Shown here: piece by piece, positions 783 through 49,190 of the stretch
How the letters are laid out: every line of letters starts with the position of its first letter
Numbering within the stretch: position 1 is the first letter of the stretch
Virus record (IMG/VR): IMGVR_UViG_3300025117_000031
Span: 1-64,000 of that record
DNA: 64,000 bases
Strand: one strand, 5' to 3'
Origin: a virus
The notes under the pieces: model-generated
What the model was told of the DNA's origin: nothing
What the model saw: the letters and a program-made list of their open reading frames with translations, nothing else
Database searches by the model: none
Position numbers and translations under genes: made by a program

Positions 783-2171
783 CCCATTTGAGACTTAAAC
801 CATGAACCCATTAGTTAACACAGTTGCTCAATTCCTGCCCATGAGGAAGTTTCGTTCTGGCCGTAGGGCCAGAACCAGAGCTTTCTTGACAGCAGGCTAT
901 CCCCGCCAGGGCGGCGGTTCTAAGATTAATGGCTGCGTTGATGTCTCGGTCGTGGACAACCCCACAAACCTCACAAACCCATTCTCGGATGGACAAAGGC
1001 AACGGTCCTTCTCGTCTTGTTCCACAGTCGGAACACAGCTTGGAAGAAGGGAACCAGCGGTCGGCAACAATGATTTCACTGCCGGCAAGCGGAGCTTTAT
1101 ACATAAGCTGACGCCTGATTTCCGACAAGGCAGCATCCGCAATCGACTTGGCAAGATGATGATTTGCCATCATCCCCTTGACGTTCAAGTCCTCGATTCC
1201 AATCCGACGAAAGTCTCGGACCAGCCGAGCGGTAAGCTTATGCGTTACGTCTTTGCGGATGTTGGAAATCCGTTCATGCAGCCGTCCAAGCTTCGTTTTA
1301 GTCTTCTGCCAATTTCTTCCTCCTATGACGCGACGAGACATTTCCTTGTTGAATCGTCGCAGTCTGGTTTCATGAGCACGCAGAATGCGTGGAGCCTCGA
1401 CCCGTTCTCCCGTAGAAAGCACGGCAAGGTCTCGGAGCCCGAGATCCACTCCAACCGCTTCTTGGGTTTCGCAGCGATGGGGATAGGACCAGGAGTCGGA
1501 GACTTGAATTTGGACCGAGACGTACCAATGACCGGCATGTTTCGTAAAGTGAGCGGACAGGATTTTACCAGGAAATCTTATCTCTTGTCGAGTGCGGACC
1601 CAACCAAGCTTGGGAATCTTAACTCTTCGGCCGTCAAAGCGAAGGGCTCGACCTTCAACGGCGAAGGACATTTTGCTTTGTTTCTTCGACTTGAAGCGGG
1701 GATAGCCGGGCTTTTGGCCAGATTTGATACGGCGAAAGAAGTTGGAGAAAGCATTGCCGAGGTTGGACAACGCCGTTGCAGCAACAGCCCACGGCAATTT
1801 TGCCATCCAAGGAAATTCGGTGTTTTTGCAGGCATTCAGCTCGGTGTTAAGACTGATCCAAGAGGGCTTTCCTTCGGCTTCGTATTGAGTTTTCCAACGG
1901 TCCAATCCCCAGTTGTAGACGAAGCGAGATGCACCAGCACAACGTTCGAAAAAGGTTGTTTGGATGTTATTTGGAACGAGTCGAATACGTTGACTGAGGA
2001 TAGTTATAGGGAGGCTTTTTTCAGAAGTTGTAGAAAGACGTTTCGACACATTATAAATATAGCACACGAAGTGAAATATGTTGACTTTTTTGTAAATTCA
2101 TTATTTTTAATAAGAGGAGAGAGCTTAAACTCATGTCGGCTGATGATTTCGTGGTTTAAATCTCGAACGGG
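783..2171 (-). mobile_element. TnpB-only element bounded by imperfect terminal inverted repeats
   Basis: Left end CCCATTTGAGACTTAAACCATGAA versus reverse complement of right end CCCGTTCGAGATTTAAACCACGAA. No tnpA inside. The same ends occur on four mini-copies. Confidence 0.85.
811..2049 (-). CDS. tnpB: TnpB RNA-guided endonuclease (IS607/IS605 OrfB type)
   Basis: N-terminal HTH (RFVYNWGL); RuvC motifs GVDLG, IEDLNV and HDRDINAA; zinc ribbon CSDCG/CEVCG. Start placed at GTG 2049 by analogy with the ATG of the mini-copies. Confidence 0.95.
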   Translation of the reverse strand: MSKRLSTTSEKSLPITILSQRIRLVPNNIQTTFFERCAGASRFVYNWGLDRWKTQYEAEGKPSWISLNTELNACKNTEFPWMAKLPWAVAATALSNLGNAFSNFFRRIKSGQKPGYPRFKSKKQSKMSFAVEGRALRFDGRRVKIPKLGWVRTRQEIRFPGKILSAHFTKHAGHWYVSVQIQVSDSWSYPHRCETQEAVGVDLGLRDLAVLSTGERVEAPRILRAHETRLRRFNKEMSRRVIGGRNWQKTKTKLGRLHERISNIRKDVTHKLTARLVRDFRRIGIEDLNVKGMMANHHLAKSIADAALSEIRRQLMYKAPLAGSEIIVADRWFPSSKLCSDCGTRREGPLPLSIREWVCEVCGVVHDRDINAAINLRTAALAGIACCQESSGSGPTARTKLPHGQELSNCVN

Positions 2172-8825: not shown

Positions 8826-9155
8826 ATGAAGAAGCTTTTTTTAGATGACGAAAGGCAATGTCCTTCTGGCTGGGAGCCGGTGAAGACAGCAGAGGACATG
8901 ATTTATCTTCTTAGAACCCTCCAAAACGTTTCAGAGGTTTCTTTTGATCATGATTTGGGCGATGGACTTAAGACGGGTATGGATGTTATCAACTGGATGG
9001 ACGAGTGGATGTTTTTTCATCGAGACTGGAATCCTCCGACTGTCAACATCCACAGTGCAAACCCAAAGGGCGTCGAGAATATGAAGCGCGCTCTCTTGAG
9101 AATGGAAGAGAGATACGGAAAGAAGATTTTTGGTAGAGTTTGGTCCACAACGTAA
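8826..9155 (+). CDS. Cyclic-phosphate-processing receiver-domain protein
   Basis: KLFLDDER, SFDHDLG, TGMD, IHSANP motifs. Confidence 0.8.
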   Translation: MKKLFLDDERQCPSGWEPVKTAEDMIYLLRTLQNVSEVSFDHDLGDGLKTGMDVINWMDEWMFFHRDWNPPTVNIHSANPKGVENMKRALLRMEERYGKKIFGRVWSTT

Positions 9156-9899: not shown

Positions 9900-11327
9900 A
9901 TGGGAAACGTTACAATTAAGAAATTTCAAATTCATAAGCCGATTGGACTTTCTTGGCAGGAGTTTGGGAAAAAGATTCGTTTACTGTCAGAACAATGTTC
10001 AGACATAAAAAACACTTATGCTGTAGAATATTATTTAGCAGATAGAAAGAATTTAGAAATAGAAAACAAGCTGCTCTCGTCTTTTGAATTTAAAAACGGC
10101 AAGTATGATAAATCTTCAAAGGAGGGGTGTCTTAAGTCTAAAACCTATCATACTCTGGTTAAACCAAAATATCTCTTGATTTCTACTCCGATTATGGAAG
10201 GACTTAAAATACAAGTTGGAGACTTTTATGTGAGACACAGGTTTGCAACTTTAGTAAAAAAAGAAGAGTCTGTTTTGTTCTTTAAAAGAACAAGCCCAGT
10301 TCCCTTCCCCAAGGGCAGTTATGAACTCTTTTTGTCCGAGGAGAAAGAATTTTGTGTTAGGCTTACAACAGGGTCAAAGAGTGTTCCCAAAGAGGAAAGA
10401 AAAATTAGCTTTGTTTTAAAAAGTTCAAAGCTTCCTGCTTTTCTCAAAAAAGAAATGAAGAGTATGTGGGAAGGGAGGCTTGGAACCGGAGAGTGCTATT
10501 TGCAGATAAAAGATAATAAGATTTTCTTTCTTGTGTCTTGCAAACACCCTCCGGTTGTCACAGAGCTAGACTCAAATGTTATTATGGGAATTGATTTGGG
10601 GATAGCGCATCCGTGGACTATTGCTTTTTCTAATTCCGAAAAGCGGGACTTTTCAATGGATGCTTCTTTAATACGAAAAAATCAAACCCAATTTCGGGAA
10701 AGAAGAAGAAGTATTCAAAGAGGATATAAAAACTATGAAGAGCGCAAAGGAAGAGGACGAAAGAAAGCCCTAGAGCCAACGCTTTCAATCGAAAACAGGG
10801 AGAGTAGTTGGGCAGATACAATGAACCACAAAATGTCTAAAGCATTGATTAACCGAGCAATAAAAGAAGGAGCTAAAACCATTCAAATGGAAAACCTTTC
10901 TGGCATTACTGCCGGGAAAAAGCCAAAGTTTCTTAAAAATTGGAGATATTTTGATCTTCAAACAAAGATAGAATATAAGGCAAAGATTGTGGGAATTAAG
11001 GTTGTGAAGATAAATCCTCAATACACGTCTCAAAGGTGTTCAGAGTGTGGAACGATCCACGAAGATAATCGCAAGACACAAGAAAAATTTGTTTGTGTTT
11101 CTTGTGGATATACTGCAAACGCAGATTATAATGCAGCAAAAAACATTGCTACAAAAGACATAGAAAATATGATTAAGGAATATTGCATAAAAAACAAACT
11201 TCCTTACCGTGGATTAAAGGATGATGAGTATGAATGTGAGGAGACTGGTACGTCGGAGACGGAAGAGTCTTCAACAAGACGAGAAGAAGAAAAAGCTGTT
11301 GACAAAAGCATAGAAGATGTGCTATAG
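9900..11327 (+). CDS. cas12f: Compact type V effector, Cas12f (Cas14/C2c10)-like
   Basis: 475 aa. RuvC MGIDLG, IQMENLSGI and NADYNAAKNIA; YFDLQTKIEYKA and YTSQRCSECG...CVSCG typical of Cas12f1/TnpB. Adjacent tracr-like RNA and CRISPR array. Confidence 0.85.
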   Translation: MGNVTIKKFQIHKPIGLSWQEFGKKIRLLSEQCSDIKNTYAVEYYLADRKNLEIENKLLSSFEFKNGKYDKSSKEGCLKSKTYHTLVKPKYLLISTPIMEGLKIQVGDFYVRHRFATLVKKEESVLFFKRTSPVPFPKGSYELFLSEEKEFCVRLTTGSKSVPKEERKISFVLKSSKLPAFLKKEMKSMWEGRLGTGECYLQIKDNKIFFLVSCKHPPVVTELDSNVIMGIDLGIAHPWTIAFSNSEKRDFSMDASLIRKNQTQFRERRRSIQRGYKNYEERKGRGRKKALEPTLSIENRESSWADTMNHKMSKALINRAIKEGAKTIQMENLSGITAGKKPKFLKNWRYFDLQTKIEYKAKIVGIKVVKINPQYTSQRCSECGTIHEDNRKTQEKFVCVSCGYTANADYNAAKNIATKDIENMIKEYCIKNKLPYRGLKDDEYECEETGTSETEESSTRREEEKAVDKSIEDVL

Positions 11328-11328
11328 T
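11299..11328 (+). promoter_or_regulatory. sigma70 promoter for the tracr/array transcript, inside the 3' end of cas12f
   Basis: TTGACA-N18-TATAGT with extended -10 TG. Confidence 0.65.
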
Positions 11329-11365
11329 TATGTCATTCTTGGGGCGGCAATAGCCACAAGATAAA

Positions 11366-11378
11366 GTTCTTTGAAAAA
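11366..11378 (+). promoter_or_regulatory. boxA-like antitermination element
   Basis: GTTCTTTGAAAAACTGAATA resembles rRNA-operon boxA (GTTCTTTGAAAAC). Confidence 0.5.
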
Positions 11379-11394
11379 CTGAATAAAGAATAAA

Positions 11395-11600
11395 TTTGGG
11401 AATAGAATACAGTTTTGTATTCTGGGCGTGGTCCCACGCCCTAATCTGAGAAAGTGGCCCAAGAAAGTCTTAATAAAATAAGACTGGTATGGCAATACTC
11501 TCGGAAAGCCGTGCGGAGTTTCCGCCTACAGAAGCATGTATAGCAAAGAATAAATTCTTTGACGGATATGCTATTCCCGCATGTGGCAGGGGAGCCACAG
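11395..11600 (+). ncRNA. Putative Cas12f tracrRNA
   Basis: Serial hairpins. Loop GGTCC (11430-11434) is complementary to the repeat 3' end GGACC. CCTAAT..GAGAAAGTGGCC core. Anti-repeat at 11571-11596. Confidence 0.7.
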
Positions 11601-11625
11601 TTGGGTATGACTTCGATGTCATAGA

Positions 11626-11897
11626 GTCTCCCCCGCGTGTGCGGGGATGGACCTGGCAAAAGCGTGGTCGAAGGCTAAAAAAAGATGTCTCCCCCGCGTG
11701 TGCGGGGATGGACCAGCCCCGGTGCCAACATTTTTCCCCCGTCCTACGTCTCCCCCGCGTGTGCGGGGATGGACCTTCTGCCAAGAGCACAGAAAAAAGA
11801 TCCTGAAAGTCTCCCCCGCGTGTGCGGGGATGGACCTTCTTCTAATGTGCAGCCTAATAGCGTCAACGTGTCTCCCCTGCGTGTGTGGGGATGGACC
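11626..11897 (+). CRISPR. CRISPR array: 5 repeats of 28 bp and 4 spacers of 33 bp; type I-E-like repeat
   Basis: GTCTCCCCCGCGTGTGCGGGGATGGACC at 11626, 11687, 11748 and 11809; degenerate trailer copy at 11870 (2 substitutions); constant 61-bp period. Confidence 0.97.
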
Positions 11898-27055: not shown

Positions 27056-27697
27056 TTACAACCTCATTCCTTCGAATTCTTCTTCGCAGACAAGTTGTTC
27101 CAACATATAAAAAAATTCGGGGGAAGAACGAATCAGCTTAAAAAGTGGATTATCATCTAATTGTGAATAAAACTCCATGAAAGGATATTTTAGAGAGGGA
27201 TAAAGATAAAAAACGTCTTCTATATTTCTATTGTCTTCAAACTGAGACCAGTTAAAAGTTGGGCTTATTTCGTCAAAAAAATCTTTCCAAACTTTAACTT
27301 TATTTTTTGTTTCTACAGAAGGGTCAAATAAGTCTTCCGCAGAGATTGCTTTAAGTTTTTCGCTTTTGTTTTGGTAATAGGCTTCATATAGAAGGAAATC
27401 AATAAAAGAAGCGAGAGGAACGTTGCCTTTTCGTTGATTATTGTCGTCAAATATGGCTTCATAAACGGCAGAGTATAAAGAATCCAAATTTTCGTGTTTC
27501 TTTAGAAAAAACTGTTCTTTGAAGAGACAGAGAATTTCAAAGTTACTTACTTCTGTCTCACTGCAGTATCCTTCTTTCTTCAGAAGTTCAAACCACTTTT
27601 CGTTAACTTCTTTAGTATCGAATTCGAGCCACCGAAGATAATCATCAACAACACAGAACATTTTTCGAAGGTCTTCTAGAGCATAACTGTTTTTCAT
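27056..27697 (-). CDS. Hypothetical acidic protein
   Basis: RBS supplied by the ankyrin cassette tail; MKNSYAL start. Confidence 0.7.
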   Translation of the reverse strand: MKNSYALEDLRKMFCVVDDYLRWLEFDTKEVNEKWFELLKKEGYCSETEVSNFEILCLFKEQFFLKKHENLDSLYSAVYEAIFDDNNQRKGNVPLASFIDFLLYEAYYQNKSEKLKAISAEDLFDPSVETKNKVKVWKDFFDEISPTFNWSQFEDNRNIEDVFYLYPSLKYPFMEFYSQLDDNPLFKLIRSSPEFFYMLEQLVCEEEFEGMRL

Positions 27698-28233
27698 TTT
27701 GTTTCCTTTTTCTTGTCCAAATTCCATTTCTTGACGACTTCTGGCATTTCTTTGTTATAGTGGTCGGGGTTATGTTGATAAAGAATCTTCACGACCTCAA
27801 CATGGCCTTTTTCCGAAGCCCGTCGGATGGCAAGGTTGTTATCGGCCGTTGGATCAACCCTCTTGTCGGAAAGAAGAATCTTCACGACCTCAACATGGCC
27901 GTTTGCCGAAGCCCATCGGATGGCATAGTTGTCATCGGCCGTTGGATCAACCCTCTTGTCGGAAAGAAGAATCTTCACGACCTCAACATGGCCTTTTGCC
28001 GAAGCCAATTGGATGGCAGTGTTGTCATCGGCCGTTGGATCAATCCTCTTGTCGGAAAGAAGAATCTTCACGACCTCAACATGGCCGTTTGCCGAAGCCA
28101 CTCGGATGGCAGCGTTGTCATCGGCCGTTGGATCGAACACATCCATCGACAGAATTAAAGCCGCTTCCTTGTCTTTGCCTTTATTGCAAAGCTCCCAAAA
28201 AAGCCGCTCTCCTCTGTTTTGTTCTCTTTCCAT
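27694..28233 (-). CDS. Ankyrin-repeat protein, copy B (4 repeats)
   Basis: 93-bp units; promoter TTGACA-N17-TATCCT 8 nt before the ATG (leaderless). Confidence 0.92.
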   Translation of the reverse strand: MEREQNRGERLFWELCNKGKDKEAALILSMDVFDPTADDNAAIRVASANGHVEVVKILLSDKRIDPTADDNTAIQLASAKGHVEVVKILLSDKRVDPTADDNYAIRWASANGHVEVVKILLSDKRVDPTADNNLAIRRASEKGHVEVVKILYQHNPDHYNKEMPEVVKKWNLDKKKETK

Positions 28234-31386: not shown

Positions 31387-31573
31387 AACGAGTACAGTTA
31401 TAGCAATCTTGATAACCCTTTCGACACTTGGACAGAATTTCTTTATTTACCGGCTCTATTTCGGTAAGTTCAAGAAGAAGGGGGTTTGGTCCGGATCTAC
31501 TACAAAGAAGGCTTGAGCAGCCTTTGCAAGGTCCAACGGACTTTCTCGCTAGTTTGTAAATTATTTTAGACAT
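31292..31573 (-). CDS. Cys-rich hypothetical protein
   Basis: ORF directly after ankyrin copy C. Confidence 0.55.
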   Translation of the reverse strand: MSKIIYKLARKSVGPCKGCSSLLCSRSGPNPLLLELTEIEPVNKEILSKCRKGYQDCYNCTRYDCGDNTNSIIFENEKEKCPNKLHLCRNGTY

Positions 31574-31978
31574 TTAAACTCCACTTCTTGACGACTTCTG
31601 GTGTCTTTTTGTTATAGTGGTCGGGATCTTGTTGATAAAGAATCTTCACGACCTCAACATGGCCTTTTGCCGAAGCCCATCGGATGGCAAGGTTGTTACC
31701 GGCCGTTGGATCAACCCTCTTGTCGGAAAGAAGAATCTTCACGACCTCAACATGGCCTTTTGCCGAAGCCCATCGGATGGCAGTGTTGTCATCGGCCGTT
31801 GGATCAATCCTCTTGTCGGAAAGAAGAATCTTCACGACCTCAACATGGCCGTTTGCCGGTTGTCATCGGCCGTTGGGTCGAACACATCCATCGACAGAAT
31901 TAAAGCCGCTTCCTTGTCTTTGCCTTTGTTGCAAAGCTCCCAAAAAAGTCGTTCCCCTCTGTTCTGTTCTCTTCCCAT
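31566..31978 (-). pseudogene. Ankyrin-repeat protein, copy C, frameshifted
   Basis: Same promoter and N-cap as copies B and D. The first repeat lacks ~19 nt of the variable segment (GACAAC|CGGCAAAC at ~31858), breaking the frame. Confidence 0.85.
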
Positions 31979-49073: not shown

Positions 49074-49117
49074 TTCTCCTCCAAGAGAAAATATTATTTA
49101 TTTTGTATTGAGAAGTT

Positions 49118-49190
49118 ACCTGCCCGTTGGATTCGAACCAACATCTTCCGCCCTGACTGCGGCTGTCCTACCACTTAGACGACGACAGGT
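49118..49190 (-). tRNA. Atypical tRNA-like gene, TCA in the anticodon position
   Basis: CCTGTC/GGCAGG acceptor with a mismatch; D arm; CCGC-AGTCAGG-GCGG; GTTGG-TTCGAAT-CCAAC; no U33. Confidence 0.55.

Follow-up and report, generated by a model that had tools for sequence, protein, structure and literature searches.

Results

A Cas12f locus in a viral genome

We analyzed the first 64 kb (hereafter, the window) of the IMG/VR record IMGVR_UViG_3300025117_000031, a phage genome of 153,920 base pairs (bp) with a GC (guanine plus cytosine) content near 40% and an estimated completeness of ~85%. The plus strand of the window carries a gene for a compact Cas12f effector, a predicted promoter, a multi-hairpin RNA resembling a trans-activating CRISPR RNA (tracrRNA) and a CRISPR array whose repeat is of the class 1 type I-E kind. 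Judging from sequence comparison and RNA folding, we consider it likely that the phage possesses a type V-F1 (Cas12f1) interference module that reads a type I-E-type array. The features of the locus are as follows (aa, amino acids; nt, nucleotides):

9900 to 11327, plus strand: cas12f gene, encoding a type V-F1-like effector of 475 aa with an acidic C-terminal tail at about aa 430-475
11299 to 11328, plus strand: predicted sigma-70-type promoter, TTGACA-18-TATAGT, 11 of 12 matches, with a TG extension
11337 to 11422, plus strand: three extra hairpins between the promoter and stem 1, from the predicted fold
11424 to 11441, plus strand: tracrRNA stem 1, whose loop (11430-11435, GGUCCC) holds the short anti-repeat GGUCC (R:AR-2, pseudoknot)
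11442 to 11511, plus strand: conserved tracrRNA core with the UAA..GAGAAAGUG motif and stem 2, from alignment, RNAalifold and a covariance model
11512 to 11569, plus strand: distal tracrRNA stems, stem 3 at about 11511-11526 and stem 4 at about 11533-11571, from minimum free energy and cofold predictions
11570 to 11597, plus strand: long anti-repeat (R:AR-1), predicted to pair with repeat nt 1-25, with several G-U pairs
11598 to 11625, plus strand: short leader with a 6-bp palindrome at 11606-11623, ending in AGA at the leader-repeat junction
11626 to 11897, plus strand: CRISPR array of five 28-nt I-E-type repeats and four 33-nt spacers

A first-pass annotation of this DNA had described a 475-aa RuvC effector with an intact D-E-D triad, a promoter and a multi-hairpin RNA after the effector gene, a hairpin at 11424-11441 exposing GGTCC complementary to the terminal GGACC of the repeat, an antiparallel pairing of 11571-11596 with the repeat, and five 28-bp repeats with uniform 33-bp spacers. 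All of these elements were recovered in the present analysis, as described below.

The effector is a full-length Cas12f1

The open reading frame (ORF) at 9900-11327 matches the Pfam family Cas12f1-like_TNB (PF07282; 1e-23) and the NCBIfam family guided_TnpB (NF040570; 2e-49). Its top match among proteins of solved structure is AsCas12f1, over the full length (E 3e-60), followed by SpCas12f1, OsCas12f, CnCas12f1 and Un1Cas12f1; the acidic tail falls outside the alignment with AsCas12f1, whose last residue is aa 427. Aligned with 17 homologues, 18 sequences in all, the protein has D232, E331 and D409 of its RuvC site in invariant columns, along with the four cysteines of the CxxC...CxxC zinc ribbon, and the three acidic residues align with the AsCas12f motifs GIDLG, QME(D/N)L and NADYNAA. 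The best Foldseek matches of an AlphaFold model (predicted local distance difference test score, 79) were AsCas12f chains, with template modelling scores of 0.71 when normalised to the query and 0.78-0.81 when normalised to the target. With a split RuvC domain and a TNB zinc ribbon, the 475-aa protein lies within the 400-700 aa size range and domain layout of type V-F1. The product of this ORF is hence a full-length Cas12f1 by both sequence and fold, with its active-site residues intact.

For comparison, 80 viral loci and several assembly contigs with Cas12f homologues were fetched, and ~20 distinct protein relatives, the majority of them on viral contigs, were compared. The nearest homologues are only ~35% identical to the window protein, and a query with this single protein returned no relative above 25% identity from viral or metagenome contigs.

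The phage's own four TnpB genes were considered as a source of Cas12f and rejected: at 23% identity they are paralogues unrelated to it. These TnpB-like copies lie at 811-1806 (minus strand) in the window and at 75020-76015 (plus), 95699-96694 (minus) and 146974-147969 (plus) of the genome; their open frames are 428-431 aa long and the ATG-initiated ORFs compared, of 331 aa, are 92-93% identical to one another. The copies look like an active IS200/605-type element family within the phage.

The RNA downstream of cas12f shares its core with Cas12f tracrRNAs

The predicted promoter sits in the last codons of cas12f and is directed toward the tracrRNA and the array. The segment that follows, 11335-11625, folds at -101 kcal/mol (z = -5.95), and none of 200 shuffled sequences was equally stable. 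No Rfam family matches the window RNA. In the Cas12f relatives, the non-coding stretch beside the gene consists of a short hairpin, then UAA..GAGAAGUG, then a second stem closing with ..CUCG.UAAGGUA, and the window shows the same layout at 11424-11511. When the RNAs of 11 loci (the window and 10 relatives) were aligned and folded jointly by RNAalifold, stems 1 and 2 emerged as the consensus, with compensatory changes in 13 of the 18 pairs. Moreover, when the ten relatives, the window excluded, were used to build a covariance model, its sole match within the 64 kb was at 11422-11511 on the plus strand (24.5 bits, E 1.4e-5). Outside this core the RNA diverges: the sequence of distal stems 3 and 4 is not conserved with relatives, and the extra hairpins add roughly 70-85 nt compared with the relatives, where stem 1 begins 12-25 nt past the stop codon. 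Measured from stem 1 through the anti-repeat, the RNA is 174 nt long, near the length of its AsCas12f1 counterpart; in the AsCas12f1 and SpCas12f1 systems, gene, tracrRNA (153-169 nt; 169 nt for AsCas12f1) and array likewise follow in this order on one strand (PMC8548392).

The guide of Cas12f is known to combine a long repeat/anti-repeat duplex with a 5-7-bp pseudoknot, formed between a tracrRNA loop and the 3' end of the repeat (10.1101/2023.07.03.547593; PMC11246509); the architecture described in the first-pass annotation, with a short pseudoknot just before the conserved core, agrees with these reports. In the window, the GGUCC of the stem-1 loop is the exact complement of the last five nucleotides of the repeat, GGACC. 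That annotation had also proposed to look for covariation of this loop with the repeat ends of homologous loci, and such covariation was found: in all nine tabulated loci the stem-1 loop complements the 3' end of the locus's own repeat, through six distinct sequence pairs (GGUCC:GGACC in the window; GUUUU:AAAAC, CUCG:CGAG, CUCU:AGAG, UUCA:UGAA and ACUCAC:GUGAGU in relatives). Over these loci the loop/repeat matches sum to 42, a total that none of 20,000 random reassignments of loops to repeats attained, and the window loop, with 5 nt paired at the repeat end of its own locus, pairs at most 2 nt with that of any other.

The long anti-repeat and the repeat are predicted to form a duplex of -36.4 kcal/mol (RNAduplex), a value as low as which was obtained with none of 300 shuffled sequences. 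Only three segments of the 154-kb genome reach this energy; the value of one, -69.4 kcal/mol, is consistent with the reverse strand of the array itself. Cofolding gave -97.0 kcal/mol for the tracrRNA-repeat dimer against -86.3 kcal/mol for the two monomers, favouring the duplex by ~11 kcal/mol. Thus, core, long anti-repeat and short pseudoknot, by which a V-F1 tracrRNA is recognised, are all found here by computation. In AsCas12f1, the long and the short anti-repeat can each be replaced by an arbitrary complementary sequence with activity kept, and the docking footprint is 28 nt (PMC11246509). Since AsCas12f1 tolerates such swaps and its footprint equals the length of the window repeat, a re-matching of the window tracrRNA to a new repeat is plausible.

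The array is of type I-E character

The repeats of the array start at 11626, 11687, 11748, 11809 and 11870, in 61-bp steps, and enclose spacers at 11654-11686, 11715-11747, 11776-11808 and 11837-11869. Four repeats are identical. The fifth is degenerate: two of its C residues are changed to T, and G-U pairs preserve the stem. The array is polar, with identical repeats near the tracrRNA and leader and the degenerate one distal. Both this polarity and the AGA at the leader junction are compatible with an array that can take spacers from an I-E integrase, AGA or AGT being common at the leader-repeat junction among the I-E leaders that we collected.

The first-pass annotation had taken the repeat and the 61-bp period for hallmarks of type I-E, a view that the bacterial arrays bear out. 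When one genome of each prokaryotic species was scanned for the repeat stem and 3' handle, at least 120 loci came up, mostly long arrays. The phage repeat is identical at 27 of 28 positions to that of a Sphingomonas locus (L057; 73 copies), where Cas5, Cas6e (PF08798), Cas1 and an E. coli-type Cas2 (PF09707) are encoded directly upstream of the array in the same orientation, as at the end of a canonical I-E operon. The unit measures 61 bp in 904 of the 932 units (97%) of the listed bacterial arrays of this repeat family and in all four units of the phage. Repeat and unit length of the phage array are thus I-E hallmarks. The base that follows the repeat, which may be the signature of a protospacer-adjacent motif (PAM), is T, A, T and T in the phage (11654, 11715, 11776 and 11837) and C (65%), G (27%), T (6%) or A (1%) in the 932 bacterial units listed. 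The phage spacers therefore appear not to have been acquired under the usual rule of those bacterial arrays: either the I-E system of the true host selects another PAM, or the phage retains only those spacers with a flank that suits Cas12f as well. The array finder reported no other CRISPR-like array in the 153,920-bp record; the 93-bp tandem units that it flagged at 1-363, 27694-28233 and 31566-31978 are ankyrin-type repeats and were discarded as CRISPR candidates.

Arrays of related and other viral loci

Where an array was found next to a Cas12f relative, its repeats were of V-F type, 30-43 nt long with a 65-75-bp period, and typically ended in GCGAG, GUGAAG or GAAAC; an I-E-like repeat was absent from every examined relative's array. 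The window array occupies the same position as these arrays, but its repeat, at 28 nt and of I-E type, falls outside the V-F-type range of the examined relatives (~30-43 nt). At least 117 further viral contigs contain repeats of I-E type, and among the matches listed three contigs also encode a TnpB/Cas12f-like protein; the succession of Cas12f1 gene, tracrRNA and array was seen in none of the at least 117 contigs listed. One prophage-like Cas12f locus was recovered from three samples (L128, 5324-5560; L129, 5324-5560; L130, 2053-2290) with identical tracrRNA and repeats and a single spacer that differs each time, a sign of spacer turnover among phage Cas12f loci devoid of adaptation genes.

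Two viral contigs show I-E-type repeats in other settings. In one (L316, 1-1340), a TnpB-like ORF ends at 1231 and is followed, 40 nt on, by two I-E-type repeats only 7 nt apart (1271-1335), a pair that may serve as a decoy or be a guide site that has degenerated. The other (L247, 430-520, minus strand) contains a mini-array of two I-E-type repeats around a single 33-nt spacer; an ordinary TnpB-like ORF lies ~1.5 kb away and opposite to it, and a tracrRNA motif is absent.

Adaptation genes, host and targets

The first-pass annotation had reported no cas1, cas2, cas4 or cas6 gene in the window. Our searches agree and extend this result to the whole 153,920-bp record, itself ~85% complete: Cas1, both Cas2 families, Cas4 and Cas6e were found in neither, the Cascade subunits and Cas3 not being among the proteins searched for. 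The genomes returned by the repeat-family scan were, among the matches listed, mostly those of high-GC Actinomycetota, Vicinamibacterales and others, and are for that reason a poor fit as hosts of a phage of 40% GC. A near-exact repeat was absent from five lower-GC genomes; in the phylum of one of these, a repeat identical at 25 of 28 positions occurred in 1 of 401 genomes, and in a second phylum in 0 of 401. The spacers had no self-match in the 154-kb genome and no significant match in GenBank phages, a plasmid search with them matched only the repeats of other I-E arrays, and exact 20-mers of spacers 1, 2 and 4 had no match in IMG/VR.

Other features of the record

A 109-aa cREC_REC protein (cyclic-phosphate processing receiver; PF20274, 2e-26; phrog_1479) is encoded at 8826-9155 on the plus strand, just upstream of the Cas12f locus, amid small ORFs of no known function. 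At 49117-49190 on the minus strand ARAGORN predicts a 74-nt tRNA with the anticodon UCA ('tRNA-SeC'), which the Rfam tRNA model did not report at its gathering score and which may be a TGA-suppressor or an aberrant tRNA.

Discussion

The homology of the tracrRNA core, the complementarity of both docking sites to the phage repeat and the covariation of loop and repeat end lead us to regard Cas12f, tracrRNA and the I-E-type array as probably forming one unit. The central proposal of the first-pass annotation, that the tracrRNA of a phage Cas12f system has been matched to a repeat of I-E type, is thereby supported by core homology and loop covariation on one side and by the identity of the repeat on the other. 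We postulate that transcription of the tracrRNA, and probably of the array as well, starts from the promoter in the last codons of cas12f. The tracrRNA would then dock to each repeat twice, through 11570-11597 with repeat nt 1-25 and through the GGUCC loop with the terminal GGACC, giving a Cas12f-type pseudoknot, and Cas12f would bind this scaffold, presumably dimerising as its relatives of solved structure do. Of each 33-nt spacer, some 20 nt at the start would guide cutting, by the RuvC site, of PAM-flanked DNA of competing mobile elements.

Because the 28 + 33 = 61-bp units carry the length signature of I-E Cas1-Cas2 and the phage is devoid of adaptation genes, we infer that the array was built by a bacterial I-E adaptation module. 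It is quite possible, if slightly doubtful, that the Cas1-Cas2 of an I-E host still adds spacers in trans during infection or lysogeny. A further step, which we think unlikely, would make the array bilingual, the same pre-crRNA (precursor CRISPR RNA) being used by Cas12f via its tracrRNA and by the host's Cas6e and Cascade. Host Cas1-Cas2 would then supply spacers, host I-E interference would be armed against competitors and the crRNAs of host arrays may load Cas12f; the T or A after the repeat would be a trace of selection for spacers flanked by a sequence that meets the PAM of Cas12f as well.

Several observations weigh against a Cas12f1 module that reads, and gains spacers through, an I-E-type array. 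In the maximum-likelihood tree the window Cas12f lies on a long branch inside the relatives' group without a supported sister, and since the tree is unresolved around this branch no sister group can be named. The short anti-repeat has only 5 nt. The repeat is palindromic and the DNA at 11570-11597 aligns equally well with it in either orientation, including as a degenerate direct repeat, so that part of the long-duplex signal comes free; owing to this equal alignment we dropped the idea of a purely antisense copy, and a decayed leader-proximal repeat, little changed, could be the origin of the anti-repeat. The T and A bases after the repeat depart from the bacterial family, where C or G takes this place in 92% of units. 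The exact repeat core had no match in viral contigs, nor did a 25-nt version of it in metagenome contigs, the repeat searches named no host for the phage, and the collections searched hold no close relative of the window locus that could show spacer turnover. Finally, no protospacer was found for the spacers, and hence no target or PAM.

These observations bear in different ways on the alternatives that we considered. It is rather unlikely, in our opinion, that the array is a static relic, i.e., a fragment of a bacterial I-E array captured once by recombination, to which the tracrRNA has adapted and which, gaining no new spacers, serves as a fixed four-guide weapon. The lack of adaptation genes in the record, the mere four spacers, the lack of a related phage with turnover and the failure to find the exact repeat in viral or metagenome contigs all fit such a relic; yet a plain copy of a bacterial array would hardly have T, A, T and T after its repeats where 92% of the bacterial units have C or G, the related phage Cas12f loci L128-L130 do differ in spacers among samples, and the polarity and AGA leader junction have been retained. 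Viral mini-arrays with repeats identical to those of the host are common and target competing viruses (PMC11656645), and the array could likewise serve only host Cas6e, Cascade and Cas3, and simply adjoin a Cas12f that has lost its own array and ignores these crRNAs. The repeat and unit are indeed fully I-E-like, and, of the at least 117 further viral contigs in which such repeats occur, nearly all have no Cas12f neighbour. Nevertheless, we hold this independent, Cascade-hijacking role to be improbable: both docking sites of the tracrRNA fit the phage repeat, at a loop position that co-varies with the local repeat in all relatives, whereas a tracrRNA left from a lost V-F array should match a V-F repeat end such as CGAG, which that of the window does not, and the array sits exactly where the relatives have theirs.

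Two further explanations deny the locus a working Cas12f guide. A decayed locus, in which nothing is expressed and the similarity between tracrRNA and repeat is historical, would be in keeping with the long branch of the protein, but it is very improbable given an intact ORF with all catalytic residues and zinc ligands, a near-consensus promoter, four identical repeats and a strong RNA fold. Hardly probable at all is that the repeats act as an RNA anti-CRISPR which soaks up host Cas6e or Cascade subunits, with spacers that are meaningless. Solitary phage repeats have been discussed as inhibitors (PMC11656645) and the closely spaced repeat pair near the TnpB-like gene of L316 looks like a decoy of this sort, but four canonical 33-nt spacers, a degenerate terminal repeat and a matched tracrRNA make up the anatomy of a working array.

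We therefore return to the Cas12f1 module reading an I-E-type array. Arrays and guide-RNA rules are generally regarded as separate between class 1 and class 2 systems, while here a class 2 effector appears to have been switched to a class 1 repeat via two short stretches of its tracrRNA, much as engineers reprogram tracrRNAs. If true, this would reveal a simple path of evolution along which phage nucleases without adaptation genes enter the host's spacer-acquisition machinery, and adaptation in trans, shown for type IV-A3 and proposed for phage Cas12r, would be extended to the tracrRNA-dependent Cas12f family. In this locus, moreover, Cas12f would have a scaffold of natural origin able to take a hairpin repeat of 28 nt, and an old question becomes testable, namely whether one array can serve two unrelated interference machines.

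Comparison with known systems

With the type V-F1 systems (AsCas12f1, SpCas12f1, OsCas12f1 and Un1Cas12f1) the window shares the sequence and fold of the effector, its D-E-D RuvC site and zinc ribbon, as well as a long tracrRNA between gene and array with the core, the long anti-repeat and the 5-nt pseudoknot, and the repeat-then-spacer polarity of the crRNA. It differs from them in its 28-nt palindromic I-E-type repeat in 61-bp units, instead of 30-43 nt in 65-75 bp, in being phage-borne without cas1, cas2 or cas4, and in the extra hairpins before stem 1 and the acidic C-terminal tail. With type I-E arrays (for example Sphingomonas L057 or E. coli K-12) it shares the repeat sequence (27/28 with L057), stem-loop, 3' handle, 61-bp unit, leader orientation and degenerate terminal repeat, whereas the record has no Cas6e, Cas1 or Cas2, the 'leader' is a tracrRNA and each repeat is followed by T or A instead of C or G.

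The idea of a mobile interference module that draws on a host's I-E adaptation has precedents in two other systems, and the novelty is lower than the first-pass annotation assumed. The Lalka Thermus phages encode Cas12r with a 29-bp repeat that shares elements with the host I-E repeat, with 32-33 bp spacers, and the authors tentatively propose spacer acquisition by the host I-E module (10.64898/2026.04.20.719267). This system has in common with the window a phage-encoded compact type V effector, a short array and no adaptation genes (10.64898/2026.04.20.719267). According to the description in that paper, by which alone we set the two apart, Cas12r belongs to another TnpB branch, uses no tracrRNA and has the spacer 5' of the repeat; the window protein is of Cas12f1 type and would be linked to its I-E repeat through a re-matched Cas12f1 tracrRNA. 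Plasmid type IV-A3 systems, as summarised in a later article, acquire spacers in trans via the Cas1-Cas2 of a host I-E system (Benz et al. 2024, cited in PMC11656645). As far as that summary goes, they too are interference modules on mobile elements without adaptation genes, with an array compatible with the host I-E integrase; they join class 1 to class 1, on plasmids and by experimental evidence, whereas in the window a phage would, by inference, join a class 2 effector to a class 1 repeat. The closest parallel to the RNA itself is an engineered one: in a modified AsCas12f1 tracrRNA both anti-repeats were swapped to accept a foreign 28-nt 'repeat' (PMC11246509), and the window looks like evolution's version of this design. 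Our comparison suggests that what is new here is the coupling of a tracrRNA-dependent Cas12f1 to a class 1 repeat through re-matched anti-repeats, a rare natural splice of the two classes.

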